Shown piece after piece: positions 22,337 to 61,900 of a DNA stretch of 64,000 nt. A program made the position numbers and the translations under genes. The first letter of the stretch is position 1. Every line of letters starts with the position of its first letter. The notes below the pieces were generated by a model. That model had not been told where the DNA came from. It did no database searches and was given only the letters and a program-made list of their open reading frames with translations. Source of the DNA: Pseudomonadota bacterium (GTDB taxonomy: Bacteria; Pseudomonadota; Gammaproteobacteria; Steroidobacterales; Steroidobacteraceae); contig CAUJHX010000182.1 of NCBI GenBank assembly GCA_963204795.1, positions 56,903 to 120,902 on the forward strand, given 5' to 3'.

Positions 22337-23064
22337 TGTTCGGATACCTGCCTGACCCAGAAGACAAGCGCGATCTGCCGTTCGACTTTTTGTCCACGCA
22401 GCAGGTTCCGCCCGAAGTCGACCTTCAGGGCCGTTGTGTCGCGATCCCGAATCAGGGCGGCACCTCCAGCTGCGTCGGACAGGCGACCCGCCAGGGCTTC
22501 GGCGTCGAAGAGGCGCGCTACGGGATCATCGACCCCGCGTCGGCCATGGGCATCTACTTCAACGCCCGCGCCGAGCATGGCGTCGAGAAGTTCGACTCTG
22601 GCACGCATGTGCGAACCGCCATCAAGTCCGCGGTGAAGTTCGGCCCGCTCCGCGAGCGAGACTGGCCGTTCGACGCCTCGCTGATCAACAAGCGTCCACC
22701 ATGGCGCGCATACCGCAACGCCCACGACGGCAAGGGCCCGCAGGGCTACTACCGCATCGTCGAAATCGGAGACGCTCGACTCGACGCGATCCGTCGCGCG
22801 TTGGCGGCCGAGCACCCGGTCGTCTTCGGCACGAACGTCGCGGAGAGCTTCACGCAGGACGACGGGCCGTTCCGGATCGACCGCCCGGACTCGTCGGAGC
22901 GTATTGCGGGCGGCCACGCCATGTGTCTCGTCGGCTACAAGGACGACATGTTCCGTGTCGCCAACTCCTGGGGCACCGGCTGGCGCGACCAAGGCTTCGC
23001 TTGGATGACCGAGAGCTACCTGACCTGGGTCAGCACGCGCGATCTTTGGGTCATCGTGGTGTGA
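22336..23064 (+). CDS. papain-like cysteine peptidase (C1 family)
   Basis: 242 aa from ATG 22336 (TGATG overlap). QGGTSSCVGQA (Gln/Cys), GGHAMCLVGY (His) and NSWGTGWRDQGF (Asn-Ser-Trp). Confidence 0.85.
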   Translation: MFGYLPDPEDKRDLPFDFLSTQQVPPEVDLQGRCVAIPNQGGTSSCVGQATRQGFGVEEARYGIIDPASAMGIYFNARAEHGVEKFDSGTHVRTAIKSAVKFGPLRERDWPFDASLINKRPPWRAYRNAHDGKGPQGYYRIVEIGDARLDAIRRALAAEHPVVFGTNVAESFTQDDGPFRIDRPDSSERIAGGHAMCLVGYKDDMFRVANSWGTGWRDQGFAWMTESYLTWVSTRDLWVIVV

Positions 23065-38626: not shown

Positions 38627-39802
38627 ATGACCTACCATTTCATAGGCGCCCCCGGAATCGGCGAATACACCGGCTACAACACGGGTCCAGTCGGAGCAGA
38701 AATCGTGCGGCGCGGAGGCGCCACGGATAGCTCCAGTCTGAAGGCCTACGCTGCGGCTGGCGCTGGCGCCGGAGGCGCAGCGTTGTGTACGGCGTACGGA
38801 GCGGCGGCTGCGGCGCCGTTGTGTGCCAGCATCGCCTCAACGGTTGTCGGTACGCTGCTCAGCGTCGGCAAAGCCACCGCCGGCCCCGGCTGCTACAGCA
38901 TTGCCCATTATTGGAACAACAACGCGCTCCCGCGCGTAAGAGCAGCTGCCGAGGGGCAGCTGGCGATTCGCAGCTACCTGGCAATGCGCGATCAGGCTAT
39001 CGACGAAGCGGCGAAGGCTGGGGCGGACAAGAAGTGGGCGGACAAGTGGCTATCGGAGCACGGCATCCCTGGCGCACCGATCATTCCGGAGTGGTCGCCG
39101 CGACAAGACCTGTACGAGACGTACAAGGCGATGGCGATCTGGTCGGAGCACCCCGTGGGCGCGGATCCTGTTGCAAAAGCGCAGGGGTATACGCACGGAA
39201 GCGGCATCAACCGCTGCGCGACCAACTACTTGTCCGGTCAGAGCTGTGGCCCAAGCGCTCAAAGCGTCGCAGACCAGCTCGGTCGCAAATGCCCCGAGTT
39301 CCTGCTGACCGCCTATCACTACCCGTTTGGATCACCTGCCGCCCCCGGAGAGCCGATCAACTGGGCAATGGTTGGCGCATACCAGGCCGTCCAGACGCTT
39401 CCTGGTCAGGCCAAGTCGGGACAGTGGTGGCCTGACGTCTGTCTGCCTATGCCCAACATGTTCGCCGGACAAGGATCGAGGCCGATCAATTCGACAACGC
39501 CGGGGTACTCCGCTCCGCAGGGCGAGGACGTCTGCAAAGCTCAGCCCAAGGTCAATGCCGCCAAGTGGACAACTTTCGCCAAAGTCATCCCCACGCAGCT
39601 CGCCGCAGAGCTGAGATTCAAGCTGCAGGATTCCAAGCCGCAGTTGCTCGCTGACGCAAAAAAACTCGGCGTCTTGAGCAGTCGTCTCGTACTCGTCCGG
39701 GCGGAGCCCAGGAAAGGCAAAAGCTCCGCTCTCGCAATCGCAGCCGTTGGCATCGCGGGACTTGGTGCCGGCGGGTGGTGGTGGTGGAAGCGCCGGCGCT
39801 AG
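38627..39802 (+). CDS. large tail-anchored membrane protein (391 aa)
   Basis: Starts MTYHFIGAPGIGEYTGY. Cys-containing ectodomain. C-terminus ALAIAAVGIAGLGAGGWWWWKRRR. Confidence 0.7.
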   Translation: MTYHFIGAPGIGEYTGYNTGPVGAEIVRRGGATDSSSLKAYAAAGAGAGGAALCTAYGAAAAAPLCASIASTVVGTLLSVGKATAGPGCYSIAHYWNNNALPRVRAAAEGQLAIRSYLAMRDQAIDEAAKAGADKKWADKWLSEHGIPGAPIIPEWSPRQDLYETYKAMAIWSEHPVGADPVAKAQGYTHGSGINRCATNYLSGQSCGPSAQSVADQLGRKCPEFLLTAYHYPFGSPAAPGEPINWAMVGAYQAVQTLPGQAKSGQWWPDVCLPMPNMFAGQGSRPINSTTPGYSAPQGEDVCKAQPKVNAAKWTTFAKVIPTQLAAELRFKLQDSKPQLLADAKKLGVLSSRLVLVRAEPRKGKSSALAIAAVGIAGLGAGGWWWWKRRR

Positions 39803-39967
39803 TTCGGTTGCCCCGCCCCGGACTGTTCGCTGCGGCCTACTGTGGCATCTGCACGCTCCCGACCGGCTCGGACCTGCGGATCCGACTCGTGCGCCGCCGT
39901 GCAGACGCGCAGCTGGACTACATCGTCCGGGTCCGCGGCCTTTTTTGTGGCCCGCTCAGTTAAGTGC

Positions 39968-39996
39968 TTGACCGACGCATATGGGCCCGGTAGGCT
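39968..39996 (+). promoter_or_regulatory. promoter candidate for the polybasic-protein / capsid gene block
   Basis: TTGACC (39968-39973), N17, TAGGCT (39991-39996) in a 260-bp intergenic region. The leader is about 70 nt. Confidence 0.5.
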
Positions 39997-40075
39997 CCAC
40001 CCGTTAGCGACAACGTGGGTCGTGGCGTCTGACCGCCTCCACTGTTCTGCCGCGTAGGCAGAGGTGTATGTGGGC

Positions 40076-42388
40076 ATGAGTCAGAAAGCCGTCGGACGAG
40101 CCTTCAGGATCACGGACAAGGACGCGAGGTCATATGACCGGACGACCAAGCCGCGCTCCAAGATGCGCCCGAACCCGATGGGGGTGACCACGCTCGCGAT
40201 GGTCAACGGCCGCGGCGCATATGCGTCAGCGAAGGCTGGCGCTCAGGGCCAAACCAGGGCGCAGCGCCTCGCGCGGGCCCGCAAGCTGATCGGAGGCAAG
40301 GGCATGCAGTCCAACGCTCGCGGCCATCGCGCCGCGTTCATTTCCGCCATGCGGTCCAACAAGGGCTCCGCGAAGAGCAAGGGCTCGGGCGCCAAGAGCA
40401 CGGATCTCCGCCGCCGCGGCAAGCGGCTGGCCGCCTACAAGTCCGCCCTGAAGCGCAACGGGACCAAGGCCGGCGCGGCTCGGGCGGCGCTTCGCGCGGT
40501 GCCGTTCACCGCGAACGAGCGCAAGCGCAAGACGAGCTTCGCGGGCGTGAAGGCTCGCAAGAAGTACCGCCGCAACGACTTCGTCGGTGTCGGCAAGTCG
40601 GCCTGGGGCGAAGCGGGCGCAAGCAAGCCGGCAGCGAAAGCGAAGAACAAGCAGCCTCGCACGCAGCGTCGCCCGACGCGCGCGCAGTACCAGGCTCCTC
40701 CTCCAGAGAAAAAGAAGACCTCGCGAAAGGGAAAGCAAGTGGCGAAAGCGAAGCGAAAGACCAAGGCAAAGAAGCGTCGCGCGGCCGGTTCCCAGTACCG
40801 GACCGTGAAGCAGACCGTGAAGCGCAAGACTCGCGTCGCGTTCGGCAAGTACAAGCGTGCCCGGCTCTACAACCCGCGCACCGGGAAGACCGAGTACAGC
40901 TACATGTACCGCTCCGGCGGCAAGCTGCGCCGGATCCCGACCGCAGCCGTCTCGGGCTGGGGAGAGCGGGGCAAGAAGTCCGGCGAGCGCGCCACGAAGA
41001 TGGCGGCTCGCATGCAGGCGGCGCGCAAGCGCGCTGCCGACCGAATCCTCAAGGAGGGCGACGTGTTCATCCCGAACAAGAAGCGCAAGACCAAGAAGAA
41101 GCGCAAGGGCTCCAGCAAGCGCAAGAGCGCGAAGCGCGTGGCGGCCGGCAAGAAGGCAGCTCGCACGCGCAAGCGCCGGGCGAAGGCATCGGGCGCGAAG
41201 CGGCGCAAGTCGAAGGGCGGCGCGAAGCGCAAGCGCAAGAGCGCGAAGGCATCGGGCGCGAAGCGGCGCAAGTCGAAGGGCGGCGCGAAGCGCAAGCGCA
41301 AGAGCGCGAAGCGCGTGGCGGCCGGCAAGAAGGCAGCTCGCACGCGCAAGCGCAAGGGCGGCGGCAAGAAGCGCAAGGCGAGCGCGAAGCGCGGCGGCAA
41401 GCGCGGCGGCAAGCGCCGGAGCGGCGCAAAGCGTCTGCGGAAGGGCACGTACTACGTGGCCAACCGTCGGCGTCGGCGGAGCAAGGGTCGTCGGATGCGC
41501 AAGAACGCGTTCATGGCGAACCTGAAGAACGTGCTCATCACCGGCACGCTCGTCGCCGTCGGCTACATGGGTCACCGCGTGCTCACCTCGCTCGCCTGCG
41601 AGTACATCTTCACGCCGTACGTCACGGCGCCCGAAGGCAAGGAGCCGAACCTCGCGCTCAAGACCTGGGAGAAGCCCATCTGCGGCGCCGTCGTCGGCCT
41701 CGTGGGTGTCGGCGCGCTCTCGGTCATGGCCGACAAGCGGATCATGTCGGGTGAAACCGCCATGAAGATCGGTGGCGGCATGGTGGCCTCGCTCGTTCAG
41801 TACGTCGTCGTGAGCGCTCTCGCTCAGTTCGACCAGCCGAAGGCAGCGAGCTACCTGAGCGGCTACTCCAACTCGGCGGCCTACGGCCTGCGCGGCAACC
41901 GCCGCGGCATGTCCGGGATGTCGAGCATCATGCCCCACTACCAGCAGCTGGGAGCCTTCCAGCAGGCGGCGGCGGGCATGGGCGAGTACTTCACCGGCAC
42001 CGGCGCCTTCGAGCAGGCGGCGGCGGGCGTCGGCGAGTACTTCGTGCCGGGTGGCACCAAGGGCGTCGGTCAGTACGAGGCCGCGGGCCCGCTCGCCATG
42101 CAGGCGGCGGCCAACGGCATCGGCGAGATCGAGGACGGCATCCGTCCGGACTCGAACCTCGACCACGTGCTCGATCTGGCGGAGTCGGCGGCCGGCCTCG
42201 GTGAGTACTACACCGCGACCCCGGGCGCCGGCGGCTATGCCGAGGGCACCGTCCCCCAGCAGAGCCAGTGGATCCCCAACGGTCCGCTGTGGGCCGGCAC
42301 CATGGCGGCCAAGGACACGATGGCCACGAGCGAGCTGCCTGCAGGCGTGCTCGCGACCGTCGGAGGCAACGGCGTCCTGAGCGGCTGA
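40076..42388 (+). CDS. polybasic (Lys/Arg/Ala) repeat protein fused to a membrane domain and a GxGEY-repeat tail
   Basis: 770 aa from ATG 40076 (track GTG 40064). The first roughly 470 aa are K/R/A/G-rich with perfect internal repeats. Hydrophobic helices follow: VLITGTLVAVGYMG, ICGAVVGLVGVGALSVMA and IGGGMVASLVQYVVVSALA. The tail carries GMGEYF, GVGEYF, GVGQYE, GIGEIE and GLGEYY. Confidence 0.7.
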   Translation: MSQKAVGRAFRITDKDARSYDRTTKPRSKMRPNPMGVTTLAMVNGRGAYASAKAGAQGQTRAQRLARARKLIGGKGMQSNARGHRAAFISAMRSNKGSAKSKGSGAKSTDLRRRGKRLAAYKSALKRNGTKAGAARAALRAVPFTANERKRKTSFAGVKARKKYRRNDFVGVGKSAWGEAGASKPAAKAKNKQPRTQRRPTRAQYQAPPPEKKKTSRKGKQVAKAKRKTKAKKRRAAGSQYRTVKQTVKRKTRVAFGKYKRARLYNPRTGKTEYSYMYRSGGKLRRIPTAAVSGWGERGKKSGERATKMAARMQAARKRAADRILKEGDVFIPNKKRKTKKKRKGSSKRKSAKRVAAGKKAARTRKRRAKASGAKRRKSKGGAKRKRKSAKASGAKRRKSKGGAKRKRKSAKRVAAGKKAARTRKRKGGGKKRKASAKRGGKRGGKRRSGAKRLRKGTYYVANRRRRRSKGRRMRKNAFMANLKNVLITGTLVAVGYMGHRVLTSLACEYIFTPYVTAPEGKEPNLALKTWEKPICGAVVGLVGVGALSVMADKRIMSGETAMKIGGGMVASLVQYVVVSALAQFDQPKAASYLSGYSNSAAYGLRGNRRGMSGMSSIMPHYQQLGAFQQAAAGMGEYFTGTGAFEQAAAGVGEYFVPGGTKGVGQYEAAGPLAMQAAANGIGEIEDGIRPDSNLDHVLDLAESAAGLGEYYTATPGAGGYAEGTVPQQSQWIPNGPLWAGTMAAKDTMATSELPAGVLATVGGNGVLSG
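41117..41353 (+). repeat. nested perfect direct repeats inside the polybasic gene
   Basis: A 63-bp unit occurs twice in tandem at 41180-41242 and 41243-41305 (AKASGAKRRKSKGGAKRKRKS). It is flanked by a 60-bp direct repeat at 41117-41176 and 41294-41353 (KRKSAKRVAAGKKAARTRKR). Confidence 0.9.
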
Positions 42389-42407
42389 TCGCACACCGCG
42401 CGCTCCA

Positions 42408-42442
42408 GCCCCGGCTCCTGCGGCAAACCGCAGGCCCGGGGC
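42408..42442 (+). terminator. strong GC hairpin after the polybasic gene
   Basis: GCCCCGG-CT-CCTGCGG, loop CAAA, CCGCAGG-C-CCGGGGC. No U-run follows. Confidence 0.4.
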
Positions 42443-42540
42443 TCGGGGCGTTGAACCGGCCCGAGGCTTCAGAGGAACGTGCCCTCTCAAAATAACCGTC
42501 AGCCAGAGGCCATCAGCATCTCCAAAGGAGAATTACAGCC

Positions 42541-43323
42541 ATGTCGAAATTGACCAACGTGAGGGAGCGCGTCCACCAGCCGTTCTACGACACCCTGATC
42601 CGGACTTCCGGTCTCGGTGGCACCATCCAGCCGGTCGGCAGCCCCACCAACCTCTTCACCAACCGCGCTCGCGCGGACGAGATCGTCGCGCTGACGAACC
42701 TGGACAACGGCAGCACCCTGCCGTCCGACCAGTCGCACGTGACGCTCGCGCTCCGCTGCTTCACGTGGTTCCGCAACCCGCAGATCCGCTCGGCGGCCCC
42801 GGGCGCGAACGTGCAGGTCAACAACAACGGCGACTACTCGCAGGCCGGCGCGGCGGCCTTCTGGGCGCTGGGCGGCGGCCTTCCGGGCGACGGATCGTCC
42901 ATCGGTTCGATCCAGGACGTCTACCGGCTGCACTGGCAGTCGATGGAGCAGCTCCACTGGTCGTACGGCACTGGTGAGAAGTTCAGTATCACCAACATGG
43001 CGACCAAGTACTTCCCCGACGGGGGTGGCCTCTCGGGCGACATGGGCGGGACCTCGGACCTGATCCACTGGCAGAACGGTACGCCGGACCACACCGCGAT
43101 CCTCCGGCTCGCGCGTGCGATCCTGCTTCCGCCTCGCCAGAACGTGAAGTGCGTCGCCAACATCAGCGCCCTCCCGGCTGGTGGCCAGGCGGCGGCCGTG
43201 GGCGCAGTGACGGCCATCGGCCGGAACATGCTCTCGCTGGTCGACAACCTGAACGCGGTGGACGGGATCGCCAAGGTGATCCAGTTCTGCTTCGACGGCT
43301 TGTTCGCACGCGATGTCCAGTGA
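42541..43323 (+). CDS. major capsid protein candidate (260 aa, beta-rich)
   Basis: Best RBS in the window (AAAGGAGAATTACAGCC-ATG). Own 150-bp upstream spacer. An intrinsic terminator follows immediately. The function is inferred from expression signals and position only. Confidence 0.45.
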   Translation: MSKLTNVRERVHQPFYDTLIRTSGLGGTIQPVGSPTNLFTNRARADEIVALTNLDNGSTLPSDQSHVTLALRCFTWFRNPQIRSAAPGANVQVNNNGDYSQAGAAAFWALGGGLPGDGSSIGSIQDVYRLHWQSMEQLHWSYGTGEKFSITNMATKYFPDGGGLSGDMGGTSDLIHWQNGTPDHTAILRLARAILLPPRQNVKCVANISALPAGGQAAAVGAVTAIGRNMLSLVDNLNAVDGIAKVIQFCFDGLFARDVQ

Positions 43324-43457: not shown

Positions 43458-44423
43458 ATGGCAAATCTCGATCAGATCCTTCGTCAGATGCAGCAGCAGA
43501 TCGGGTTCGCGGCGGCGACGGCGCGCGAGACCCAGACTGGCATGCAGAACGTGAGCGGCGACCAGGCGCTCATCCGTCAAGAGCTTCAGCGCCAGCAGCG
43601 CGACCTGCAGAACGTGGCCGACGCCCTCATGCGCGTCAAGGCCAGCGGCGGCCAGGGGGGCGCGAGCATCAGCGACCACGTCCGCTACATCGAGTCGATC
43701 CCGGGGCGACGCGTTCCGTTCGACATGCTGGTGGACATCCCCATCGGGGCCAACCAGACCGCTCAGACGCAGGGCACGATCACGGTGTCGCAGGACGGAC
43801 CGTTCGTGGCCGTCGCTCGCTTCGCGATCTTTCAGAGCGCGTTCCAGTTCCAGTTCCGCGATCCGCAGGACAACAGCCTGGCTGCGTTCCAGGGACGCTC
43901 CTTCGGTCGCTACCGGCCGATCCACTCGGTGAACGACTGGAATGACGCGGGCGCGGGCTACAACCCGGTCATCGCACTGGGCGCAGGCGCGCCGATCTTC
44001 GCGAGCCCGAGCAACCACTCGTCGTTCCGCACGATGGAGTGGGATGGCGTCGTCGAGTTCTTCAACCAGGGCGCGGCCTATCCGCGGTCCAACATCCAGG
44101 TGCCGAGCGCCTTCTGGGTGAGCGAGAACAACGCTCCGTTCCAGCTCGGTGCGCTCGACTTCTTCGAGCGCGGCGAGACGATGCAGTGGCGAGTCACGCC
44201 GACGCACAGCAACAACCCAGCAGCGGGCAACGTGAGCGGCTTCGCCGCCGGCGGGTTCTACCCGTTCCTGGACAGCCAGTACGACGTGCAAGAGGGCGTG
44301 TCCGATCCGTTCCTGGCAGGTGTGGAAACCGATCCGATCACGCGGCTGCCGGACGGCATCCTGACCATCGGCTTCCACGGGTTCAGGATCATCCAGCCGC
44401 CGGGGCCCGTGAGCATGACCTGA
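43458..44423 (+). CDS. capsid-associated protein candidate (321 aa; N-terminal coiled coil plus beta-rich domain)
   Basis: ATG 43458 with a GGAGG RBS. Starts MANLDQILRQMQQQIGF. Beta-like segments TITVSQDGPFVAVARFAIFQS and ILTIGFHGFRIIQ. Confidence 0.45.
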   Translation: MANLDQILRQMQQQIGFAAATARETQTGMQNVSGDQALIRQELQRQQRDLQNVADALMRVKASGGQGGASISDHVRYIESIPGRRVPFDMLVDIPIGANQTAQTQGTITVSQDGPFVAVARFAIFQSAFQFQFRDPQDNSLAAFQGRSFGRYRPIHSVNDWNDAGAGYNPVIALGAGAPIFASPSNHSSFRTMEWDGVVEFFNQGAAYPRSNIQVPSAFWVSENNAPFQLGALDFFERGETMQWRVTPTHSNNPAAGNVSGFAAGGFYPFLDSQYDVQEGVSDPFLAGVETDPITRLPDGILTIGFHGFRIIQPPGPVSMT

Positions 44424-44436
44424 GAGGGGGAGCAGC

Positions 44437-45300
44437 ATGGCGAACGACAGCTTCATCGACGGTTCGCGGGCGAGAGAGCTGAGATTGGCTCCCCCACCCG
44501 CGCCAGCCTATGCGCCGGTGCTTCGCCCCGGCGCCAGCGCGATGCCGTATCCGCCGGAGCCGGGGTCGGCGACGACGGGCGGCTCGTGCGCGGCTCAGCG
44601 CGTGCAGCTCGCCGGTGGGGCTCTCAGCAGCCTGATGGTCCACCCGTTCGTGACCCCCTTCGAGCAGCTGTACCGACGGCTGCCCGAGGAGGGCATGTTC
44701 AGCCCGGACGTCTCGCCCCAGCGGCCGTTCGCCTTCGAGCTTGGCGCGTTCCAGGTTCCGGATCGGTTCGCGCTCTGCCTGTTCGACCTGCGCCCGGACG
44801 TGTACCGGCTCAGCGGGCTCGACGCGGGCGACTTCGTTCCTGTCGAGGCCCGCAGGTTCAGCTCCATCATGGGCTTCGAGATCACGGTGGATCAGCGTCA
44901 CCCTGGGAACCTGCAGTACCAGCTCGATCCGGTCGCCATCCAGGCGACGGCACAGGCGTTCACGCGCGCAGTCAGTGGGCCGGCCGGCGCCGGCGGGCTG
45001 ATCCCGCAGCCGCCACCGGCATCGGTGTTCAACATCGGCGCGGCCAACAGCTTCGCCAACGCCGCCGGCGCAGGGACCGCGCTGATGCCCCAGCGCCCGA
45101 CACGCTACGGTCCGCTGTCGGTCCCGTTCATGCTCGTGGCGCGCTCGAAGCAGACCGTTCAGGTCCGCTGCGTCATCTTCCGCCCGGTGTCGGCGGCCCT
45201 CGCCTTCATCGAGTACGACATCGCCGGCATGCTCTTTCCGACGGAGTGGCTCGATGCGATGATGGAGTGCCTCAAGCCCATCAACAACCAGCCCCGATGA
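44437..45300 (+). CDS. capsid-associated protein candidate (287 aa, beta-rich)
   Basis: GGGGGAG RBS. Contains FAFELGAFQVPDRFALCLFDLRP and VPFMLVARSKQTVQVRCVIFRPV. Confidence 0.45.
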   Translation: MANDSFIDGSRARELRLAPPPAPAYAPVLRPGASAMPYPPEPGSATTGGSCAAQRVQLAGGALSSLMVHPFVTPFEQLYRRLPEEGMFSPDVSPQRPFAFELGAFQVPDRFALCLFDLRPDVYRLSGLDAGDFVPVEARRFSSIMGFEITVDQRHPGNLQYQLDPVAIQATAQAFTRAVSGPAGAGGLIPQPPPASVFNIGAANSFANAAGAGTALMPQRPTRYGPLSVPFMLVARSKQTVQVRCVIFRPVSAALAFIEYDIAGMLFPTEWLDAMMECLKPINNQPR

Positions 45301-45427: not shown

Positions 45428-46171
45428 ATGAACTACGAGCCCTACGCCCCGCTGGGCGAGCTACCTCTGCCGCCAGGCGTCGTGCTGCCGACTGGGTTTC
45501 CCCAGATCGGCGACATCGCCAAGCAGCTCGGGCTGAAGACCTTCGGCATCTACACGCCGTGGGCAGCGCGCACGAGCGGCGTGAGCTGGGAGCCCGTGTC
45601 TCAGCCGCCCGACACGAACGTCGCCGTCTTCGCGATCAACGACAGTGCGCTCGCGGCGGCGCAGGCGCTGGCGTGGGGACAGCCCATTCCGTTCGTGGCC
45701 GTGCTGACCGAGAAGTCGGTCTCCCCCGAGGTGCTGACGAAGGCCTTCGGTGGCACGCCCTACAAGTTCTACGAGACGCAGGCGGTCTACAAGCAGTCGG
45801 ACGCGTCGCCGACCCCTCGCGTCTACTTCCTGCACTGGGCCGAGAACCGCCAGCCGGGCGATGCGGGCTCCGGGAAGACGAGCTTGGCTCAGGCCGCGGC
45901 CCAGGTCGGTGGCGCGCTGACCTACTCGATCCAGGTGAACTACAACACGACGGCCACGCGCAAGCCGCCAGGCGTTTCGTTCCAGAGCGCATTGGAGAGT
46001 CAGATGGCCAACGAAGGTCCGATCCCACCCCCTCCTCCGCCGCCGACCCCGCCGCCGCCTACGGAGCCTCCGCCGACGAAGGCGTCGATGGCCGGACCTC
46101 TCCTCGTCGGGACGGGCGTGGCGGTTGCGACGTTCTTCGTCGTGCGTGAACTGCGAAAGGGCAAGCGATGA
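45428..46171 (+). CDS. tail-anchored membrane protein (247 aa)
   Basis: Starts MNYEPYAPLGELPLPPG. Poly-Pro linker. C-terminus MAGPLLVGTGVAVATFFVVRELRKGKR. Confidence 0.65.
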   Translation: MNYEPYAPLGELPLPPGVVLPTGFPQIGDIAKQLGLKTFGIYTPWAARTSGVSWEPVSQPPDTNVAVFAINDSALAAAQALAWGQPIPFVAVLTEKSVSPEVLTKAFGGTPYKFYETQAVYKQSDASPTPRVYFLHWAENRQPGDAGSGKTSLAQAAAQVGGALTYSIQVNYNTTATRKPPGVSFQSALESQMANEGPIPPPPPPPTPPPPTEPPPTKASMAGPLLVGTGVAVATFFVVRELRKGKR

Positions 46172-48724: not shown

Positions 48725-48771
48725 CGCTCGCGGTGGCGGGATAGTCTTTGACGGAAAGGTTGATCGAAAAG

Positions 48772-49752
48772 ATGGCGTACTACAGCGGTTCTGGGGCGAC
48801 GATTCGGTCGGGCGCGGCTGGCCTTGGCGAGTACTTCGACGCGGCCCAGGGCGCCCGTCCTCCGGCGCCGGTTCAGGCGTTTCAGGACGGCGTCTTCAGC
48901 GGCGGCGGCGCGGACGTGTGGATGAGCGACGTCGGTGACGATCCGGGGCCGCTCCGCTCGTACCACGACGGCTCGCTCGGCGCTTGCCACGGGTGCGGCA
49001 TGGGAGCCTACGACCAGGCAGCTGCCGGGCTCGGCATGCCGCTGTGGATCGATGGCAAGCCGGTGGACCGGCCCGTCTCCATCATGCACGGGCCGGCGGT
49101 CGATCCGACGTCAGCCTTCCGTGATGGCAGCTTGGGCGAGTACTTCGGCGGAGGCGGAGTGCCGTGGGCGGGCTCGTTCCGCGATGGCAGTCTGGGCACC
49201 GTCGCTGCGCCGCCGAAGACGGTGGACCTGACCGATCCCCAGGCGCTCAAGGAGACGAAGATGGCCATTGCCATGATCGTCGCCGACATCGCCATGGGCA
49301 GCGGCTCCGCTCCGAACGTCGGGGCCAAGTACTACGACGAGGCCTTCTACGCCGACCCGATCTGGAGCGCGAAGGCGTCGGAGCTGTGGGATGCCGCGGC
49401 GAAGAAGCTCGCTGGCGTGACGAAGTCTCAGGTCGACGAGCTGTCGCAGTCCTCGAAGGGCAACACCTTCCCGACCGCGAACGGCTTGGCCGCGGTGCTC
49501 GCATACGGCGTCGGCGCGCCTGTCGGCGACCCGAAGTCCTTCGCGACGAACTTCCCCGTGCTGAGCGCCTGGTACGGCCAGGTGGCGGCGGCGAAGGGCA
49601 ACCTGACTGGGTTCAAGGTCTCCGCGCCGTTCTTCACCGTGCAGGAGAAGGTCTCGGGCAAGAGCATGTTCGCCGGCATGAGCAAGACGAGCCTCGTTCT
49701 CGGCGTCGGCGCCGTCGCGGCTCTCACCTTCTTCTTGATCCGGAAGAAGTGA
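48772..49752 (+). CDS. tail-anchored membrane protein with GLGEYF repeats (326 aa)
   Basis: I prefer ATG 48772 (MAYYSGSG); the track start is TTG 48748. Contains AGLGEYF, AAGLGMPL, GSLGEYF and GSLGTVA. C-terminus SLVLGVGAVAALTFFLIRKK. Confidence 0.65.
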   Translation: MAYYSGSGATIRSGAAGLGEYFDAAQGARPPAPVQAFQDGVFSGGGADVWMSDVGDDPGPLRSYHDGSLGACHGCGMGAYDQAAAGLGMPLWIDGKPVDRPVSIMHGPAVDPTSAFRDGSLGEYFGGGGVPWAGSFRDGSLGTVAAPPKTVDLTDPQALKETKMAIAMIVADIAMGSGSAPNVGAKYYDEAFYADPIWSAKASELWDAAAKKLAGVTKSQVDELSQSSKGNTFPTANGLAAVLAYGVGAPVGDPKSFATNFPVLSAWYGQVAAAKGNLTGFKVSAPFFTVQEKVSGKSMFAGMSKTSLVLGVGAVAALTFFLIRKK

Positions 49753-49764
49753 GATGAAGGCAGC

Positions 49765-50331
49765 ATGGGGCTGTTCGATGACCTTCTGGAAGACACCGGC
49801 GCTGCGCCCCCTTGGGGCCGCATCGCGGCGACCTTCCTGAGCGGTCTGCAGACCGCCCAAGCCGGCGGCGGCAAGGTCGTCGATCAGCTCTTGCAGTGGG
49901 GCTCATTGCTCGCCCGGAACGCTCCGGCGCGTTGGGGCGAGCAGGCGCTCAAGCCTGTCTTCTGCGCGGCGCACAAGTGCCAGGCACAGGCGCTTGTGCC
50001 TTGCGCGGCCTGCGGCAAGGCGTACTGCCTCGCGCATGTGCTGGTGAGCTACCACGCCGAGGGGATTTGCGAGCCTTGCGCGCTGGAGTTCGTGACCATG
50101 AAGCGCAAGCGGGCGACCAACGAGGATTCGGTGGCGGAGGCCTACAAGACCTTGCGCCTGCCCAAGACGTCCGATTGGGACGACGTGCGGGCCGCCTATC
50201 GCGCGCTGGCGGCCAAGCACCATCCCGACAAGCAGAAGACCGAGGCCGCTCGGGCCAAGGCCGAGAAGCGCATGAAGGAGATCAACGCCGCCTACGCGGT
50301 ACTGAAGCTCCACTTGCAGGAGGCAGCCTGA
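49765..50331 (+). CDS. J-domain (DnaJ-like) protein with central Cys-rich region
   Basis: 188 aa. C-terminal AYKTLRLPKTSDWDDVRAAYRALAAKHHPDKQ...MKEINAAYAVL (HPD motif). Central CAAHKCQAQALVPCAACGKAYCLAH...CEPC. Confidence 0.8.
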   Translation: MGLFDDLLEDTGAAPPWGRIAATFLSGLQTAQAGGGKVVDQLLQWGSLLARNAPARWGEQALKPVFCAAHKCQAQALVPCAACGKAYCLAHVLVSYHAEGICEPCALEFVTMKRKRATNEDSVAEAYKTLRLPKTSDWDDVRAAYRALAAKHHPDKQKTEAARAKAEKRMKEINAAYAVLKLHLQEAA

Positions 50332-53910: not shown

Positions 53911-54131
53911 AGTCAGTTTCGAGCAGGCAGCAGGCTCGCTACGGGACCGTCACCGTGGCGGTGAGGCTGGGGTGCTACGAGGTTCTGGAGTACGGCCTTG
54001 GCGGGGTCGAGCAGATGGCGGTGGTGTTGCCGGTGAAGCCGGAGCGCCCTCGGAAGCTGGCCAAGGAGCTGCGCGCCATCGCGCGCCAGCTCGATGGCGG
54101 CCAGGAAGAAGAGCGCGATGACGCTGGTTGA
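53907..54131 (+). CDS. small hypothetical protein (74 aa)
   Basis: ATGA overlap. Starts MKSVSSRQQARYGTVTVAV. Confidence 0.5.
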   Translation: MKSVSSRQQARYGTVTVAVRLGCYEVLEYGLGGVEQMAVVLPVKPERPRKLAKELRAIARQLDGGQEEERDDAG

Positions 54132-55485
54132 TCAGCTCGCTTGCCATGCCGACACGGGAGGCCAGCACTCGCTGTTGGACGGCGATGGCCGAGGCACGCC
54201 GCCCACCGAGGCAGAACTCGACATCCCGTACGCGTCGCCGTCCGAGCCACCGCTTCTGGAGTGCGGCGTAGTCTACTCGGCTGACTGGAAGAAGTTCGCC
54301 GACGGGATGGCTCGCCACGCTCGCGCGCAGGCGCTCGCCCTGGCCGCGGCCGGCATTGGGGTCCGCCTGCAGTCGATCAGCAGCGAGGGCATGTTTCTGG
54401 ACAGCGACGTCCGCTCCGAGGTGCGAGACGAGGTTGCCCACCTGACGAACGTCACCATGAAGAGCGTGATGATCGCAGTGCGGCAGGCGGTGTTTCACAG
54501 CGCCGACTTCGTGCGCAACCTTGTTGTGCCTGCCGGCGGTCGCTTGGTGGACTTCGAGCTGGAGCAGCGCATCTACCAGAACACCATCATCTACACGTCG
54601 CTGGAGCGAGATCGCGTCTCGCCCGTGCTCATCGACATCTTCAAGCGCTGCGCCGAGCTATGGGTGCCGTGTCATCAGAACGCTCAGGCGCTCGTCAGCA
54701 GCGGCATGCCCGAGGACAAGGTGCACGTCATCCCGTACCCATATGACCCGGCAGGACCGGTCTGCAAGATCCCGGCGCCTCGCGGCCATGAGCGCGTCCC
54801 GGAGGGCAAGCGGTTCTACAGCATAGGCAAGTGGGAGCCTCGGAAGAACCACGCCGGCCTGCTGATGGCGTTCCTTCGGGCCTTCACGCCCAAGGACAAG
54901 GCGTCTCTCGTGCTCAAGGTGCACGGCTGGGGCGCCTGGGAGGGCTACCCGGACATCCAGCAGGCGCTCACGCTGTGCGGGGAAGACCCGGTCGTGCGCG
55001 CGAACGGCTGGACGGACATCAACCTGCGCAAGCGCGTGAAGATCATCACGGACAAGATCAGCGACGCGGAGATCGTGGCCTTGCATGCGCAGAACAACAT
55101 CTACGTGTCGGCCTCGCACGGCGAGGCGTGGGATCTACCAGCCTTCGACGCCAAGTGCGCCGGGAACCGGCTCGTGCACGTTGGATTCGGCGGAAGCGCG
55201 GACTATGCCGACGACGCCGACGTCTGGTTGGGGTACAGGCTGAAGCCCGTGAACAAGGTCTACGGCTGGGAGGAGTGCAACTGGGCCGAGTACGACATGG
55301 AAGAAATGGTTGCTTCCTTGCGCATCGCCCAGCCGCCGACGAAGCGCGTGCACCCGAAGGGCTTCAACGCGCGCTTCAGCGCACATGCGGTAGGCGAGAA
55401 GATGAAGGATCGCATCTTGCGCGTGGCTGCCAGGAGCCATGTCGAGCTGCCAGCGATGCTGGAGCGAGCTGGGTCGTTCGGATGA
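54118..55485 (+). CDS. GT-B fold glycosyltransferase (GT4-like)
   Basis: About 455 aa (alternative ATG at 54094). Contains FYSIGKWEPRKNHAGLLMAF, VSASHGEAWDLPAFDAKCAGNRLV (E-x7-E-type region), and spacing typical of retaining GT4 enzymes. Confidence 0.65.
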   Translation: MTLVDQLACHADTGGQHSLLDGDGRGTPPTEAELDIPYASPSEPPLLECGVVYSADWKKFADGMARHARAQALALAAAGIGVRLQSISSEGMFLDSDVRSEVRDEVAHLTNVTMKSVMIAVRQAVFHSADFVRNLVVPAGGRLVDFELEQRIYQNTIIYTSLERDRVSPVLIDIFKRCAELWVPCHQNAQALVSSGMPEDKVHVIPYPYDPAGPVCKIPAPRGHERVPEGKRFYSIGKWEPRKNHAGLLMAFLRAFTPKDKASLVLKVHGWGAWEGYPDIQQALTLCGEDPVVRANGWTDINLRKRVKIITDKISDAEIVALHAQNNIYVSASHGEAWDLPAFDAKCAGNRLVHVGFGGSADYADDADVWLGYRLKPVNKVYGWEECNWAEYDMEEMVASLRIAQPPTKRVHPKGFNARFSAHAVGEKMKDRILRVAARSHVELPAMLERAGSFG

Positions 55486-55796
55486 GGCTCGACGAGGTCA
55501 TCGAGGCCATTCGTCCCTTCGCGGACGAGCGTTACCCGTACGCTCTTCCCGTTATGGTCGCCACGCGCGTAATCTCGCGCATCGTGCATGAGTACGACAA
55601 CCTGCCAAAAAAACCTGAGCCCTCGTCGGCGCAGCCCGCCGTGATAACGGTTGGGATCAAGGATAGGCACGTCGTCCTCGTTTCCAGCGGCACCGCGGAG
55701 GTCGAACCCAGCTTCTTAGTGTGGACGGCTGCACAGGCTCGCGAGGTCGCCGCAAAGCTACTTGAGCTGGCACGCTCACTGGACGGCAAGGGATGA
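55482..55796 (+). CDS. hypothetical protein (104 aa)
   Basis: ATGA overlap. Confidence 0.5.
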   Translation: MRLDEVIEAIRPFADERYPYALPVMVATRVISRIVHEYDNLPKKPEPSSAQPAVITVGIKDRHVVLVSSGTAEVEPSFLVWTAAQAREVAAKLLELARSLDGKG

Positions 55797-55987
55797 GCGA
55801 CAAGGGTCTCTGTAGGTGCGGCAAGCCGGCGCCGCTGGACGTCTCGATCAGCGCAACGCCGCCGTTCGACCCGAGCCGCACACCACGCAGCGAGTTGCAT
55901 TTTTCGGCAATCGCATGCCGGGCATGCGCCTTCGAGGCAGCGAAGCTCCTGCTGTCGTTCTTGGAGTCACGGGGGAACCCGTCGTGA
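55793..55987 (+). CDS. small Cys protein (64 aa)
   Basis: ATGA overlap. Contains CRCG...CRAC. Confidence 0.45.
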   Translation: MSDKGLCRCGKPAPLDVSISATPPFDPSRTPRSELHFSAIACRACAFEAAKLLLSFLESRGNPS

Positions 55988-57030
55988 TCCGCCTCTACGG
56001 TCACCACAAGGGCGAGAGTTCATTCGTCCAGGTCACCCGTGGCCTGCGAGCGGCGGCCAAGTCGGCCGAGCTGCTCGCAGGCGAGGTCGCCGTGGACATG
56101 CTGGAGCAGGAACGCGTGCAGCCGGGAGCAGACGCTCTCGTTGGGCTCTTCTGTGGCGCCCCGCTCAGCATCGCTCTGGGGCCGCGTATGGGGCTGCACA
56201 AGGAACACTGGTTGCTGCTCGCCCCGAACAGCGAAGGGATCCCACCGTTCCTGAGAGAGCCGCTGTCCGCGGCGACAGGGTTCCTGGCCCCCAGCTCGTG
56301 GGCCGCCGACGTCTTGCGGCGTGAGTTTCCGTCACACCGGGTGCTGGTCGCTCCGCACGGCGTGCACCCGGATGTGCATATGCCCTCGGAAGAGGACCGC
56401 GAAGCGCGAACCAAGGAATACTCGGCCGGCACGTTTCGCGTTGCGCACTTCACGAGCACGCTGGGCCAGCGCAAAGGGACACTGCAGCTCCTGAGCGCAT
56501 GGAGGAACTGGTCCGAGAAGCCAGCGGGAGCACAGTTGCTCATCGTGGCCAACCCGCTCGCGGTCAACGAGTACCTGTGGCGAGCGAAGGAAATGGGGGT
56601 AGATCCAAAGACGGTGGGCGTCGTCGCGAATCCGGAGGCGCCAGTCTCCGCGCTGGCGGCAGCGCTGCGTCACGCTCACGTCGTCTGCCAGCCATCGCGC
56701 GCAGAGGGCTTTGGGATCGTGCCGCTCGAAGCTCGGGCTTGCGGCGTTCCGGTCGTGATGACGAAGTGCACCGGACACCGTGAATTTTGGAGCCCGCAAG
56801 GCACCGTCACGGTCGCACACGGCGACCTGGAGCCGCTCGACGACTACCCGGGGGCCGTGGCGCCGTCTGTGTCATCTGAAGCCATCCGGCTGGCGCTTTC
56901 CGAAGCCTTTGAGACCTGGCTCGCGCTGTCCGATGAAGCGGCGCGCGACGCCGACTCTGTGCGCTGGGAATGGTCGTGGCAGAAGCAGAATGCACCGGTG
57001 CTCCAAGAGCTGGTTGACGGGGCGCGCTAG
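55984..57030 (+). CDS. GT4-family glycosyltransferase
   Basis: 348 aa from GTG 55984 (GTGA overlap). Contains SRAEGFGIVPLEARACGVPVVMT (the classic GT4 EX7E region) and FTSTLGQRKG. Confidence 0.75.
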   Translation: MIRLYGHHKGESSFVQVTRGLRAAAKSAELLAGEVAVDMLEQERVQPGADALVGLFCGAPLSIALGPRMGLHKEHWLLLAPNSEGIPPFLREPLSAATGFLAPSSWAADVLRREFPSHRVLVAPHGVHPDVHMPSEEDREARTKEYSAGTFRVAHFTSTLGQRKGTLQLLSAWRNWSEKPAGAQLLIVANPLAVNEYLWRAKEMGVDPKTVGVVANPEAPVSALAAALRHAHVVCQPSRAEGFGIVPLEARACGVPVVMTKCTGHREFWSPQGTVTVAHGDLEPLDDYPGAVAPSVSSEAIRLALSEAFETWLALSDEAARDADSVRWEWSWQKQNAPVLQELVDGAR

Positions 57031-58932: not shown

Positions 58933-61900
58933 GTGGAGCTGACCAAGAACCGCGCCGAGCTGGCCGTGCTGCGTGGCAAGCGCGCCCCAGAGCATATGGC
59001 CCTGTGGGTCCAGGCCTTCGCCGACGGCGACGAGGCACTGGCCCAGCGCTATGCCATCGCCGTCGCGACGTTCCTCGGTGACAGCACGGCCTCGGGCGAG
59101 GAGTGGGCGAGCTACGTCGGCAAGCTCTCGCCCCGCACGCGCGAGGCATATGCGTTCGCGGTCACGGAGTTCTTCGAGTGGGCAGCGCGCCAGCACGGTC
59201 AGATCGTTCCACCACACAAGGTGCTGCGCAAGGACGCCGAGGACTACGCGAACTGGCTCTCCAACCGACCGTTCTCGCTCACCGAAGAGAAGCTGAACGA
59301 CTTCGATCAGGAGCGACGCCGCACGATCTATGAGACCGTGGTGAAGATCGGGCCGGCGGACCGCCGCAGCATCTACGGAGCGCTGCCGGCGGCGATGAAG
59401 CCCGGCTACACGTTGGAGCTGCTGACGAGCACGCTGGGGCGCATGGTGCTGCACGACCTGCTCGACCGAAGCCCGACGCTCTCACAGGTACGCGTCGAGC
59501 ATCCGCGAGCAGGAATCGACCAGAACACCATCATGGTCCCCGGTCCCGATCCAGAGGGACCGTGGGTGCCCATGGAGCTGGCAGACGTCTTCCAGTATGC
59601 GATCCCGCGCCCGCGCGGCGTGTCTCGCTCCACCATCGCGCTCAGGCTCTCTGCGCTGAGCACCTTCTGGGACGTGCTCGCCCAGGGCGAGAACGTGCCC
59701 GGTGGCCACGCGATCATCCAGCACAACATCTTCAAGGGCATGAAGAAGCGCGTGACGCGCGGACTGAGCCGCGAACGCAAAGCGTCGGCGGCGTCGCGGC
59801 GCATGGACCCATCGCTCGTGCCGCGACTGCTCAACGCTGCGAACCTGGCCAAGACGCTCCCCGAGAAGCGCGACAAGGCGCTGTTGTACTTCCTGGTATT
59901 CACGGGATCTCGGCTTTCCGAGGCGGTCAACCTCCGAAGGGGGGAGCCTCCGGCGTCCGAGATCAACCGCTGGCCGGGGTGGTTCGTCGGCAACACGGAG
60001 CCGCCCGTCGTGCGCGTTCGGCGCAAAGGAGGCAAGCTCCAGTCGCTCCCGTTTCCCCCTGTCGCGCTGCGCGCGCTGGCAGACTTCCAGGCCGATCTGG
60101 ACAGGCGCTCCGCGCCGCTCAGCGCGCAGAGCAGCGACCCAAAGGCGCCGCACTACCTGCATCCCAACAGCCCGCGGTGGCGCTACCGCGAGCTGGCTCG
60201 CGCCTCCGACGCGCCGCTGTTTCCGCCGGTGCACTTCTGGGGCGCCAACAGCACGTACAACTACCAGGAGTTCAAGCCCAACGCCCCGAACACATATGGG
60301 CCTCCGACGTACCGCCGCTCCATGAGCAAGGCTGGCGTGTATCAGCTACTCGTGCGTCTCGCGCGCAGGGCCGGCCTGGTCGAGTCCGAGATCGAGCAGG
60401 TGCATCCACACGCGCTCCGACACTTCGCGGCAACCGCCATGGCGAAGGGCGGGAAAGACCTGCGCGAGATCCAGGCCATCCTCGGGCACGAGTCCGTCAC
60501 GACGACCGAGGGCTACCTGGCCGACATCGAGAACGTGGTGGCGCTCTCGGGCCAGGCCGAGATCCTGGAGTATCTGTCGCAGTTCGAGGGGGCGGCCGAG
60601 GCAGTGCCCCCGCCGCCCCCGCACGCGCCCAAGGCGCCTCCGAAGCGGGAGGTCATCGAGACCTACGGCATCCCGGCCCCGGAAGCCCCCAGGAGGCCGC
60701 CCAGAGAGCAGGAGCCGCAGGTTCCGGGGCAACCGCCACTGCGCCCGCCGAAGCCGCCGAAGCCGCCGAAGCCCGCCAAGGCCCCGCCGCCGGCCGTCGT
60801 CGCGGCAGCCCAGGCTGCGTCTCGCGTGCCGCCGGCGGAGACCGCAGCCGTCCAGGCGCTCGCTCCAGCATATGTGGCGCCAGAGGAGCTTCCGCCGCAC
60901 ACCCTGGCGGTCGTGCCGCACGTCACCTGGCCGGAGGCGGCGTCCATCCCGACGGCCGCCGGGCGCGTCACGGTCTACCAGGAGCCACCGGAGCCACGCG
61001 CGGCGCCCGAGCGCAAGATCGTGGCGGTCGAAGGCGATCCCATCCCGGAAGAGGTGAAGGCCGACATCGCGCTCAACCAGATCCGCGACAAGCAGAGCCC
61101 CGGCTCACCGGACGATGTCTACGAAGCGATGGAGCGCGGTGATCAGTGGGAGAGCATCGAGTTCACGCTGTTGCGACCCCGGAAGCGCCCGCGGGACGAC
61201 GACCTTGTGACCCTGAGCGGGAGCAAGGAGCGCAAGGACGAGCAGGTCCAGACGCGCTCACCCCGCCACGAGTTCCTGGCGACGTTCTACGATCCGTGGC
61301 CGCCGAACTACGGCATCGGGACCGTGAGCTTGCTTCCGTGGTTCACCAGAGGAAGGCCAGACGCGAAAGGGCGCGTCAAGGCTCCGAATGACGAGGGCGA
61401 ATGGGTTGAGATCCCACCGCTGCCGGTGCTTTCTCCGGAGCAGGTATTAGCTGAGACTACCGGTACGCATGTGCTCGACGGGCTAGAGGCGCTGTACGCA
61501 CTCTGGCTCACCGGAGATCCTGCGCAAGGAATTGCTCCGTCGCCGTCGAGAACCTTCGGCCTTGTGCGCTGGTACGGATTCTTTGCGCACACGACGGGAG
61601 CGTTGCAGGCGTATCTCCGCGACAAAAAGAAGGAGTACGACCGCATCGGCAGTTCTTCCATGGGAACACCCGTGGCCAATGTTCCGACATGGGTCGCATG
61701 GGACGTACTTGCAACCGTCGGCAAGAACGTGCGCGCCCACAAGGACGAATGGGTGCTGGCCTGGTTCCGAGAGAACGCCCACACCTACACCACTACGCTC
61801 AAGGCATATGAGCGCATGAAGGGCAAGGAAGCTAAGCCCGGAGAACAGGTCTTCACGCGCGCTTTTGAGGTGGCAACAGTCGAGGCTGAGTCTATGGCTC

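Follow-up and report, generated by a model that had tools for sequence, protein, structure and literature searches.

In several eukaryotic viruses, packaged double-stranded DNA (dsDNA) is condensed by virion polycations, among them adenovirus pVII, V, and Mu, baculovirus P6.9, and VP15 of white spot syndrome virus (WSSV). In bacterial dsDNA viruses, the packaged DNA is generally held to be naked, whether a motor drives it in, as in tailed viruses, or it enters small membrane vesicles, as in PRD1 and PM2. Virus-encoded protamine-like condensers are, to our knowledge, almost confined to eukaryotic viruses, and we know of no bacterial virus that encodes its own condenser of the size considered here. 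We describe a viral gene located on a 64,000-nt stretch (hereafter, the window) of contig CAUJHX010000182.1 (assembly GCA_963204795.1, positions 56,903 to 120,902). The open reading frame (ORF), at window positions 40076–42388 on the plus strand, runs from ATG to TGA and encodes a 770–amino acid (aa) protein with a polybasic arm, three hydrophobic helices, and an acidic tail with GxGEY repeats; the features given below between positions 39929 and 46171 lie on the same strand. Judging from its homologs, this joining of arm and transmembrane helices has been conserved as a selected design.

The overall GC content of the window is 66%. Within the ORF, GC content at third codon positions (GC3) is 0.90, among the highest values in the window, compared to 0.56 at second positions (GC2). 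This difference is the signature of real genes in this DNA, and neighboring conserved genes have similar GC3 values (0.87 to 0.92). The ORF is therefore a genuine coding sequence. A Shine-Dalgarno–like GAGGTG (40061–40066), as read from the sequence, would place its last base 9 nt 5′ of the ATG at 40076. This start agrees with the homologs, which begin 5 to 9 residues ahead of the conserved GRAF motif; an alternative in-frame start, GTG at 40064, would add four residues (774 aa). The identical 770-aa sequence is on record at NCBI, on a 122,730–base pair (bp) contig.

Residues 1 to 470 contain 18.9% K, 17.2% R, 16.2% A, 10.6% G, and 7.0% S. K and R together account for 36% of this region and D and E for 3%, and the net charge is approximately +155. 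An earlier note on this DNA, made from the sequence alone, had described the region as histone-like and composed almost only of these five residues. The enrichment in K, R, A, G, and S was confirmed, but ~30% of the residues are others, and several blocks are conserved across relatives; likewise, the histone-like character holds for composition but not for family membership, since no histone, H1, or Hc1 model matches. The polybasic protein with transmembrane helices that the note had proposed is borne out by the coding signature, the composition, and the hydrophobic segments.

The arm is not uniform. It begins with a conserved 75-residue module (aa 1 to 75; 40076–40300) with the pattern GRAFxI..SY..NPxGVT..VNGRGAY..ER..RAR; nine columns are invariant in a 21-member alignment, and the module was found in 15 of the 18 IMG/VR loci considered below. 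Two further conserved blocks (aa ~240 to 334; 40793–41077) were evident in a full-length alignment of the window protein with those of L001 and L003–L006; their motifs are QY..V..RV..G.YKRAR..P..G...YSYMYR...G..RRIP..AV.G and R..AA.R....GD.F.PN. They are followed by a polybasic tract (aa ~335 to 478; 41078–41510) that is hypervariable by composition and alignment and contains the repeats. Acidic residues are absent from aa 351 on, and an ANRRRR...RKNAF motif closes the tract just before the first helix.

All three hydrophobic helices predicted earlier could be recognized: a weaker one with conserved G, H, and T (aa 483 to 505; 41522–41590), a second preceded by a conserved W.KP motif (aa 534 to 552; 41675–41731), and a third at aa 565 to 583 (41768–41824). 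The acidic C-terminal domain (aa 584 to 770; 41825–42385) has invariant columns in the family alignment and contains the conserved blocks DGIRPDSNLD, LDLAESAAG, SQWIPNGPLWAGT, and PAG.L...GGNG.LSG. The five GxGEY-type repeats attributed to this tail exist as sites, with the exact motif in three (GMGEY, aa 634, 41975–41989; GVGEY, aa 651, 42026–42040; GLGEY, aa 707, 42194–42208) and variants in two (GVGQY, aa 663, 42062–42076; GIGEI, aa 681, 42116–42130).

GxGEY also occurs near the N terminus of two membrane-anchored proteins encoded in the same cluster, at 38627–39802 (aa 10) and 48748–49752 (aa 25), and in one close relative (L009, 10712–11773), but not in the more distant orthologs of L001, L003, and L004. 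A role as a docking motif common to other membrane proteins is thus only weakly supported, and a role as the cleavage site of the papain-like protease encoded at 22174–23064 is pure speculation.

The related loci examined numbered 23, of which 18 came from IMG/VR and 5 from other sources; they are labeled L001 and so on. Every one of them contains an ORF of 596 to 875 aa with the same design, located no more than 4 kb 5′ of the gene for a conserved 260-aa protein. In 16 of the 18 IMG/VR loci, the ORF ends 127 to 276 nt 5′ of that gene, and in all 18 IMG/VR genomes with the 260-aa gene, the ORF (596 to 875 aa) encodes a protein with a net charge between +91 and +203.

When the C-terminal 302 residues were used as a query in a word-indexed search, 54 homologs were returned, most of them only ~300 aa long. 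A reading of the polybasic arm as a local add-on, based on these lengths, was rejected, as the DNA of the relatives shows the arm in an open frame. The frame extends upstream with the same design in L001 (835 aa; 8585–11092), L003 (722 aa; 8801–10969), and L004 (818 aa; 8528–10984). Many database entries (among P0001–P0054) are gene-caller truncations to the C-terminal ~300 aa, and the arm of L001 even had an opposite-strand gene called within it. Since gene callers cut the family in this way, word-indexed protein searches mostly return truncated entries.

In an exhaustive profile search (E ≤ 1e-3), the family comprised 271 clusters at 50% identity; its full-length members mostly measure 600 to 850 aa, with the conserved domain at the C terminus. 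Among the 89 representatives of at least 550 aa, the N-terminal region has a median length of 426 aa, a K+R content of 35%, and a median net charge of +133 (range, 44 to 188), while the R/(K+R) ratio varies from 0.37 to 0.86. Across the whole family, the net charge ranges from +44 to +203, and both the K:R ratio and the repeat units depend on the lineage. The family therefore has the basic, disordered segment, conserved in charge rather than in sequence, that is characteristic of virion polycations. Net charge was compared with contig size as well, and the correlation was uninformative (r = 0.25, n = 12). The fusion of arm to helices that the earlier note saw in a single sequence was thus found in all 23 loci and in most full-length members of the 271-cluster family. 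As far as can be judged from these comparisons, selection keeps the charge and the length of the arm, not its sequence, so slippage or unequal recombination among repeats of K and R codons would keep making and deleting units.

The window itself carries clear traces of such turnover. A perfect 63-bp tandem duplication, as reported earlier, occupies 41180–41242 and 41243–41305 (2 × AKASGAKRRKSKGGAKRKRKS; 2.1 copies and 100% match in Tandem Repeats Finder). The direct repeat around it, described earlier as 60 bp long, is indeed perfect but extends over 62 bp (KRKSAKRVAAGKKAARTRKR; 41115–41176 and 41292–41353); its second copy starts within the tandem array and overlaps the last 14 nt of the array. 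The resulting layout, X-a-b-X-b-X-a, where X is GCAAGCGCAAGAGC, is the expected leftover of successive slippage or unequal recombination events between short homologies. A 12-bp unit, AAGCGCGGCGGC, is present in 2.5 copies at 41387–41416, where it encodes GGKR repeats, and its copy number differs in a relative that is 95.5% identical to the window. All remaining repeat families in the gene are 42 nt or shorter, and in those confined to the polybasic tract, the nonidentical copies are only 67 to 83% identical. Low complexity or codon monotony therefore does not account for the perfect copies, and we propose that the 63- and 62-bp repeats reflect recent slippage or recombination events.

Independent assemblies break at the second 62-bp copy. 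In four independent Logan assemblies, contigs whose first 1300 nt match the window at 100% identity start without exception at 41324, which is 30 nt before the end of that copy, and a fifth contig, 95.5% identical, starts at 41302. These starts probably represent breaks in de Bruijn graphs at the repeat; for k = 31, a break is expected k − 1 bases before the repeat end. The coincidence of the breaks indicates that the repeat is present in several samples; the tandem copy number is not verifiable from these short-read assemblies, while the repeat itself is real in other datasets. As a group, the five independent short-read contigs starting at 41302–41324 (L008 and L073–L076) delineate a systematic assembly breakpoint of these viruses.

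Past the break, basic units have been inserted or deleted in frame, in small numbers, between the window and the 95.5%-identical relative. In the tract before helix 1, relatives carry repeats of other kinds (RKRRKSTSS × 7 and RYEDNRR × 4 to 5, both in L009), and further lineage-specific exact repeats were found in L005 (LKSNRRRRYGRR), L006 (SRKRSLAAKRGWAKR × 2), and L022 (VRRRRRTRRAASP × 2). The ongoing expansion and contraction that the perfect repeats had been taken to imply is thus supported both by these differing exact tandem repeats, which arose independently in different lineages, and by the insertions and deletions in the close relative.

The 770-aa gene heads a conserved block, kept in the 23 loci, in which it is followed, in this order, by genes for proteins of 260, 321, 287, and 247 aa. 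The 260-aa gene (42541–43323), predicted to encode a β-sandwich, is the most conserved gene of the element: It has 691 homologs, the best 120 of which are 62 to 92% identical. The 321-aa gene (43458–44423) has 679 homologs, and its product is modeled as an N-terminal 60-aa helix followed by a β domain. Across the 23 loci, identity to the window proteins is 55 to 87% for the 260-aa protein and 45 to 77% for the 321-aa protein. The 287-aa gene (44437–45300) is present in 22 of these loci and the gene for the 247-aa protein (45428–46171), which has a C-terminal membrane anchor, in 20.

Upstream of the 770-aa gene, a terminator-like hairpin (39929–39941) with a T-run follows the preceding 391-aa gene (39929–39948 as a whole). 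A separate promoter had been suggested at 39968–39996; a sigma-70 consensus scan there gave no sites, and the suggestion was not upheld, the terminator-like hairpin being what lies upstream instead. The strong downstream hairpin was confirmed as a GC-rich nested structure, without a U-tract, between the 770- and 260-aa genes (42400–42451). A comparable hairpin is found at the same position in nearly all relatives (L001, L003–L005, L008, L009, and L011–L028). Its outer stem is GCCCCGG/CCGGGGC or a variant such as GCCCAGG/CCTGGGC, and its inner stem has a GAAA/CAAA-type loop; the stems vary in sequence between relatives with pairing kept. No Rfam family corresponds to this hairpin, which may be a processing or stability element setting the ratio of the two products. 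It is followed by a strong ribosome-binding site of the 260-aa gene (AAAGGAGA, 42524–42531; CCAAAGGA in many relatives).

The gene had been said to directly precede a capsid-candidate gene. The adjacency holds in all 23 loci (within 4 kb), but the capsid assignment obtained no significant structural match. The AlphaFold2 model of the 260-aa protein (predicted local distance difference test score, pLDDT, of 76) is a β-sandwich of about eight strands whose best Foldseek matches are not significant (E = 0.18 in PDB, to a protein of Sulfolobus polyhedral virus 1, SPV1; E = 0.04 in BFVD). These weak neighbors have jelly rolls and include the SPV1 capsid protein, PBCV-1, C1q-like domains, and major capsid proteins (MCPs) of nucleocytoplasmic large DNA viruses. 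The 321-aa model is poor (pLDDT of 59), with a best, also nonsignificant, E value of 0.02; its weak neighbors are mostly capsid jelly rolls, those of infectious bursal disease virus VP2, SPV1, SH1, and satellite panicum mosaic virus. Searches of both models against PDB and BFVD thus gave no significant match. The two families did not match each other in hhalign and are therefore not detectable paralogs.

The 31- to 50-kb part of the window encodes at least 10 proteins with a C-terminal hydrophobic anchor, as do the corresponding regions of L001, L003, L004, and L009. These proteins end in the anchor followed by two to four K or R residues (e.g., ...LLGVVLVMRKKRR). Such a density of tail-anchored membrane proteins is unusually high for a bacterial virus. 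A gene for a DnaJ (J-domain) protein (49765–50331) lies 5 to 7 kb 3′ of the conserved block in every locus that reaches that far (L001, 17973–18572; L003, 16976–17623; also L008, L009, and L031). In L004 (11160–12030), the 260-aa gene is split ~40 nt after its start by an insertion of ~870 nt that contains a 206-aa ORF and matches a group I intron only weakly, at 18.4 bits (E = 0.09), which is less than the gathering score; L016 likewise has a 955-nt gap.

The 770-aa protein has no recognizable relatives outside this group. No Pfam family, including Linker_histone and Hc1, matched it at E ≤ 0.1, and neither Pfam nor PHROGs gave anything significant for the protein and its ten neighbors, only chance matches at E ≥ 0.01. 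A PDB sequence search with the 770-aa protein gave no match at E ≤ 0.1, and nothing below E = 0.3 came from sequence and profile searches of PDB in which the queries were the whole protein, its N-terminal module, or the C-terminal family. The same was true of PDB searches with the 260-, 344-, and 812-aa proteins. The C-terminal domain and the 260-, 1211-, and 526-aa proteins had no tblastn match among 50,697 GenBank phages. Our literature search found no description of this virus group and no polybasic or histone-like viral membrane protein. The view of the earlier note that no equivalent had been described therefore stands for Pfam, PHROGs, PDB, and GenBank phages, and, as far as these searches reach, a virus protein joining a basic arm of 300 to 600 residues to transmembrane helices appears not to have been described.

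Genes recognized in the window include YqaJ and RecT recombinases, a DnaC-like loader, an intein-containing DnaB, ThyX, thymidylate kinase, and glycosyltransferases. The DnaB intein (gene at 16105–18825) contains a LAGLIDADG homing endonuclease. A papain-like cysteine protease gene (22174–23064; Peptidase_C1, 29.8 bits, above the cut-off, with a weak C39-like match) sits between the replication genes and the membrane-protein cluster. The 812-aa protein encoded at 29078–31516 matches no family; it consists of a very long coiled coil rich in E, R, and K, a linker rich in P, Q, and A, and a globular part at the C terminus, and it could be a scaffold or ruler-type protein. Two glycosyltransferase-like genes, one of the GT4/GT1 family and one with a weak GT4 match, lie at the end of the cluster (54094–57030). 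An ORF of 1554 aa (58933–63597) has a tyrosine-recombinase (phage integrase) domain only at aa 462 to 530 and SAM-like domains near the N terminus; its other ~1000 residues have no annotation. Since viral-type genes continue to its right, this ORF does not mark a prophage edge. The right flank beyond the window contains small ORFs and RyR-domain, VWA, and MoxR genes, and the left flank contains large ORFs without annotation. Viral-type genes continue on both flanks, so the window ends are not a prophage boundary. A genome closing just past the fiber cassette described below, at a MoxR/VWA pair in the order of L034, was rejected because L036 has no homology to L031 and because contig arithmetic and the 122.7-kb contig require at least 115 to 123 kb. 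Related IMG/VR genomes, filed as viral, are mostly 110 to 140 kb long and reach 182 kb. Two relatives were binned with uncultured Pirellulales, a weak hint that the host belongs to Pirellulales/Planctomycetota.

Considering the architecture, its conservation, and its setting, we tentatively favor the view, to which we give slightly less than an even chance, that the 770-aa protein acts in the particle as a polycation anchored in a membrane, where it condenses the viral DNA and tethers it. We infer its DNA binding, membrane orientation, virion presence, and binding partners. The protein would be made late and abundantly, together with the conserved 260-, 321-, and 287-aa proteins, and its three hydrophobic helices would insert into a lipid membrane. 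The ~470-residue arm would stay on the cytoplasmic, DNA-containing side, because a segment with a charge of approximately +155 is not expected to cross the membrane (positive-inside rule). There, it would bind viral dsDNA electrostatically, neutralize part of its charge, condense it, and tie it to the membrane, which would then become part of the particle. Specific contacts may be provided by the 75-residue N-terminal module and the acidic GxGEY tail, with the conserved β-sandwich proteins encoded next door as the likeliest partners. The K/R ends of the neighboring anchored proteins would put more positive charge on one face of the membrane. For an assumed copy number of a few hundred to a thousand, arms of +150 would balance a considerable share of the 245,000 phosphates that a 122.7-kb genome contains. 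The at least 10 anchored proteins form a cluster of virus-encoded membrane proteins of the kind that marks internal-membrane viruses.

A number of observations weigh against this model. The topology of the 770-aa protein is ambiguous: A short K/R-rich loop between helices 2 and 3 favors three spans, by which the tail would reach the far side, an arrangement needed for the linker between genome and internal membrane proposed in the earlier note, and an R-rich stretch 20 to 30 residues past helix 3 favors two spans with both ends on the same side. PRD1-style inward vesiculation would turn the cytoplasmic face of the membrane to the capsid, not to the DNA, so a linker would call for the membrane to be acquired differently, for instance by wrapping or budding or from open sheets. 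Structural matches to the neighboring proteins are nonsignificant (best E values of 0.02 to 0.18), and one of the two models has a pLDDT of 59. An FtsK/HerA-type packaging ATPase, expected for PRD1- and PM2-like viruses, was not found in the window; the only recognized P-loop proteins among the Walker A matches there are DnaB, the DnaC-like loader, and thymidylate kinase, and the other matches look fortuitous. In addition, 8 kb left of the window, a 542-aa protein (L029, 18598–20226) has a tail fiber–like N-terminal domain, whose residues 83 to 169 match tail fiber and minor tail PHROGs (E = 5e-7 to 5e-5); judged by this domain, the genome contains a tail or tail fiber–like gene. The protein belongs to a cassette encoding proteins of 136, 542, and 230 aa (L029, 14499–20922; 5 to 9 kb left of the window start) with a W-rich C-terminal domain, and this cassette recurs at 40 to 70% identity in other large uncultivated virus genomes (UViGs; L033, L053, L056, and L064). 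In at least two of the UViGs with the cassette, a sheath gene (E = 2e-11) accompanies an SU10-type HK97 capsid gene (E = 3e-7). Last, ~30 kb of the 122.7-kb contig lie outside the region covered here and could hold a head-tail module.

These observations lead to the explanation in which the virus is a tailed phage, with its head and tail genes in the part of the genome not covered here, and the 770-aa protein an internal head or ejection (“pilot”) protein. In such a phage, the arm would be packaged with the DNA, and the helices would enter the host envelope at infection and help conduct or pull the DNA in. Proteins φX174 H and J, P22 gp7, gp16, and gp20, and T7 gp14–gp16 are parallels in principle, and the envelope of Planctomycetota is unusually complex. 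Besides the tail fiber–like domain, the shared cassette, and the part of the contig not covered, a holin-like gene nearby (L029, 11866–12321) and the near-universal presence of tails among known bacterial dsDNA viruses of this size speak for this explanation. The cassette, however, could be either a mobile host-recognition module or a sign of a tailed virus. The cassette UViGs with the SU10-type capsid have none of the genes of the window’s conserved block, and 17 UViGs with a myovirus-type 526-aa gene do not overlap with the 18 carrying the 260-aa gene. Furthermore, no HK97 capsid, portal, terminase, packaging ATPase, or tail family was recognized by Pfam or PHROGs in ~94 kb of the at least 122.7-kb contig (the window plus 10-kb Pfam tables on each flank, PHROGs being applied to 54 window proteins and to part of the flank proteins). 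Outward walking by exact look-ups to L029 and L031 and by scans of IMG/VR and metagenomes reached the mosaic relative L053 and found no head or packaging genes of the window’s own lineage. An ejection role also leaves unexplained the setting of the gene among at least 10 tail-anchored membrane proteins, and known ejection proteins are not polycations of +150. We therefore regard a pilot protein of this kind as unlikely, while tailed and non-tailed particles as such appear about evenly balanced. The most far-reaching version of the favored model, that these elements form a large, globally distributed lineage of non-tailed, membrane-containing bacterial viruses of 110 to 180 kb, probably of Planctomycetota, whose DNA is condensed on a membrane-anchored protamine-like protein without a terminase motor and whose 260- and 321-aa proteins form a new, possibly jelly roll–derived shell, is doubtful as a whole; if true, it would imply a genome an order of magnitude larger than that of any known membrane-containing phage.

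The combination of membrane helices and a polycation in one design would also suit a non-virion, intracellular organizer that tethers replicating viral DNA or the host nucleoid to the membrane. Such a protein could act in replication or segregation, as does φ29 p16.7, or in a membrane-bound viral compartment together with the other membrane proteins and the J-domain protein, and the large membrane-protein cluster, the conserved DnaJ-domain gene, the glycosyltransferases, and the elaborate internal membranes of the probable Pirellulales hosts are consistent with it. The gene, however, lies 20 kb from the replication and recombination module (11.5 to 20 kb) and is fixed beside the two most conserved, highly codon-biased genes, behind a strong ribosome-binding site. 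The protein matches neither the φ29 p16.7 family nor any DNA-binding fold, and a charge of +130 to +200 exceeds what a simple tether would need; we consider the organizer rather improbable. Still less weight falls on a target other than DNA. A polycation binds any polyanion, so the arm might engage acidic lipids, polyphosphate, envelope polysaccharide, or RNA, and the protein might then serve to lyse the cell, disrupt its envelope, or exclude superinfecting viruses; helices combined with charge recall membrane-active peptides, and holin-like and endolysin-like genes occur elsewhere in these genomes. A 470-aa arm with a conserved module and blocks, strict synteny, and codon bias is unlike a lysis accessory, and the holin-like gene is located elsewhere, which makes this function very unlikely. 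That the ORF or its repeats are an artifact, a chance frame in GC-rich DNA or an assembly error, can be given almost no credence. GC-rich DNA does yield long spurious ORFs (the opposite strand holds one of 754 aa), gene callers often skip the N-terminal part, and short-read assemblies break at the repeat. Against these stand the codon-position signature in the frame of the ORF, full-length conservation across lineages at 26 to 77% identity with motifs in the N-terminal part too, the existence of the 271 clusters, and break points that are as expected for a repeat real in several datasets.

If the proposed condensing and tethering function is correct, the family represents a new way to organize a large bacterial virus genome. 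It is conserved in hundreds of uncultured 110- to 180-kb genomes, beside their best-conserved genes, and marks a substantial virus group whose particle genes would be invisible to current annotation. Because gene callers truncate many entries and short-read assemblies break inside the gene, databases underrepresent it. The arm is also a natural experiment in which selection would act on charge and length alone, with variation supplied by repeat slippage.

Compared to known systems, the 770-aa protein resembles adenovirus core proteins, P6.9, and VP15 in being a very basic, largely disordered protein of a dsDNA virus, with charge conserved over sequence and genome compaction as the expected role. 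Those proteins differ in being soluble, shorter than 200 aa, and devoid of membrane helices and in belonging to eukaryotic viruses; Pfam and PDB searches revealed no sequence relation to them. With φX174 and other Microviridae J proteins and with the arginine-rich arms of nodaviruses, circoviruses, and the hepatitis B virus core tail, the protein would share a basic segment that binds the genome and a second segment that fastens it to the shell. Those arms are 20 to 100 residues long, are anchored to protein rather than lipid, and serve single-stranded DNA or RNA genomes of a few kilobases; here, an arm of 320 to 640 residues with a three-helix anchor accompanies a dsDNA genome of at least 120 kb. 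The K/A/R-rich composition recalls chlamydial Hc1 and Hc2 and the tails of H1. Hc2 shows repeat-number polymorphism, and Chlamydiae and Planctomycetota both belong to the PVC group. Hc1, Hc2, and H1, however, are cellular, soluble nucleoid proteins without membrane helices; three helices are conserved here, and neither the N-terminal module nor the C-terminal domain has a counterpart in them.

As in PRD1, PM2, NO16, SH1, and SPV1, many small membrane proteins are encoded beside candidate capsid genes, and the capsid proteins of SPV1 and SH1 are among the weak structural neighbors of the 260- and 321-aa proteins. SPV1 packages a protein-coated genome inside a membrane. We know of no large polybasic membrane protein encoded by any of these five viruses, whose genomes are 10 to 31 kb long, versus at least 122.7 kb here, and, unlike in the PRD1/PM2 type, neither an FtsK/HerA ATPase nor a significant jelly-roll match was found at this locus. 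For NO16, a recently solved membrane phage without a tail, the virions yielded only HU-like proteins of the host, whose status is unclear (PMC13552765). As with φ29 p16.7, a single protein would combine a membrane anchor with a (putative) DNA-binding part and bring viral DNA to the membrane. The φ29 protein has 130 aa, an N-terminal anchor, and a folded dimeric DNA-binding domain and is encoded by an early gene in the replication region; in the 770-aa protein, the order is reversed, the polybasic part is disordered, the gene is far from the replication genes, and there is no Pfam match. Genome compaction by a virus-encoded polycation and genome fastening by a basic arm are thus both known principles, and what appears to be new, judging from these sequences, is their implementation as a long arm joined to a membrane anchor.

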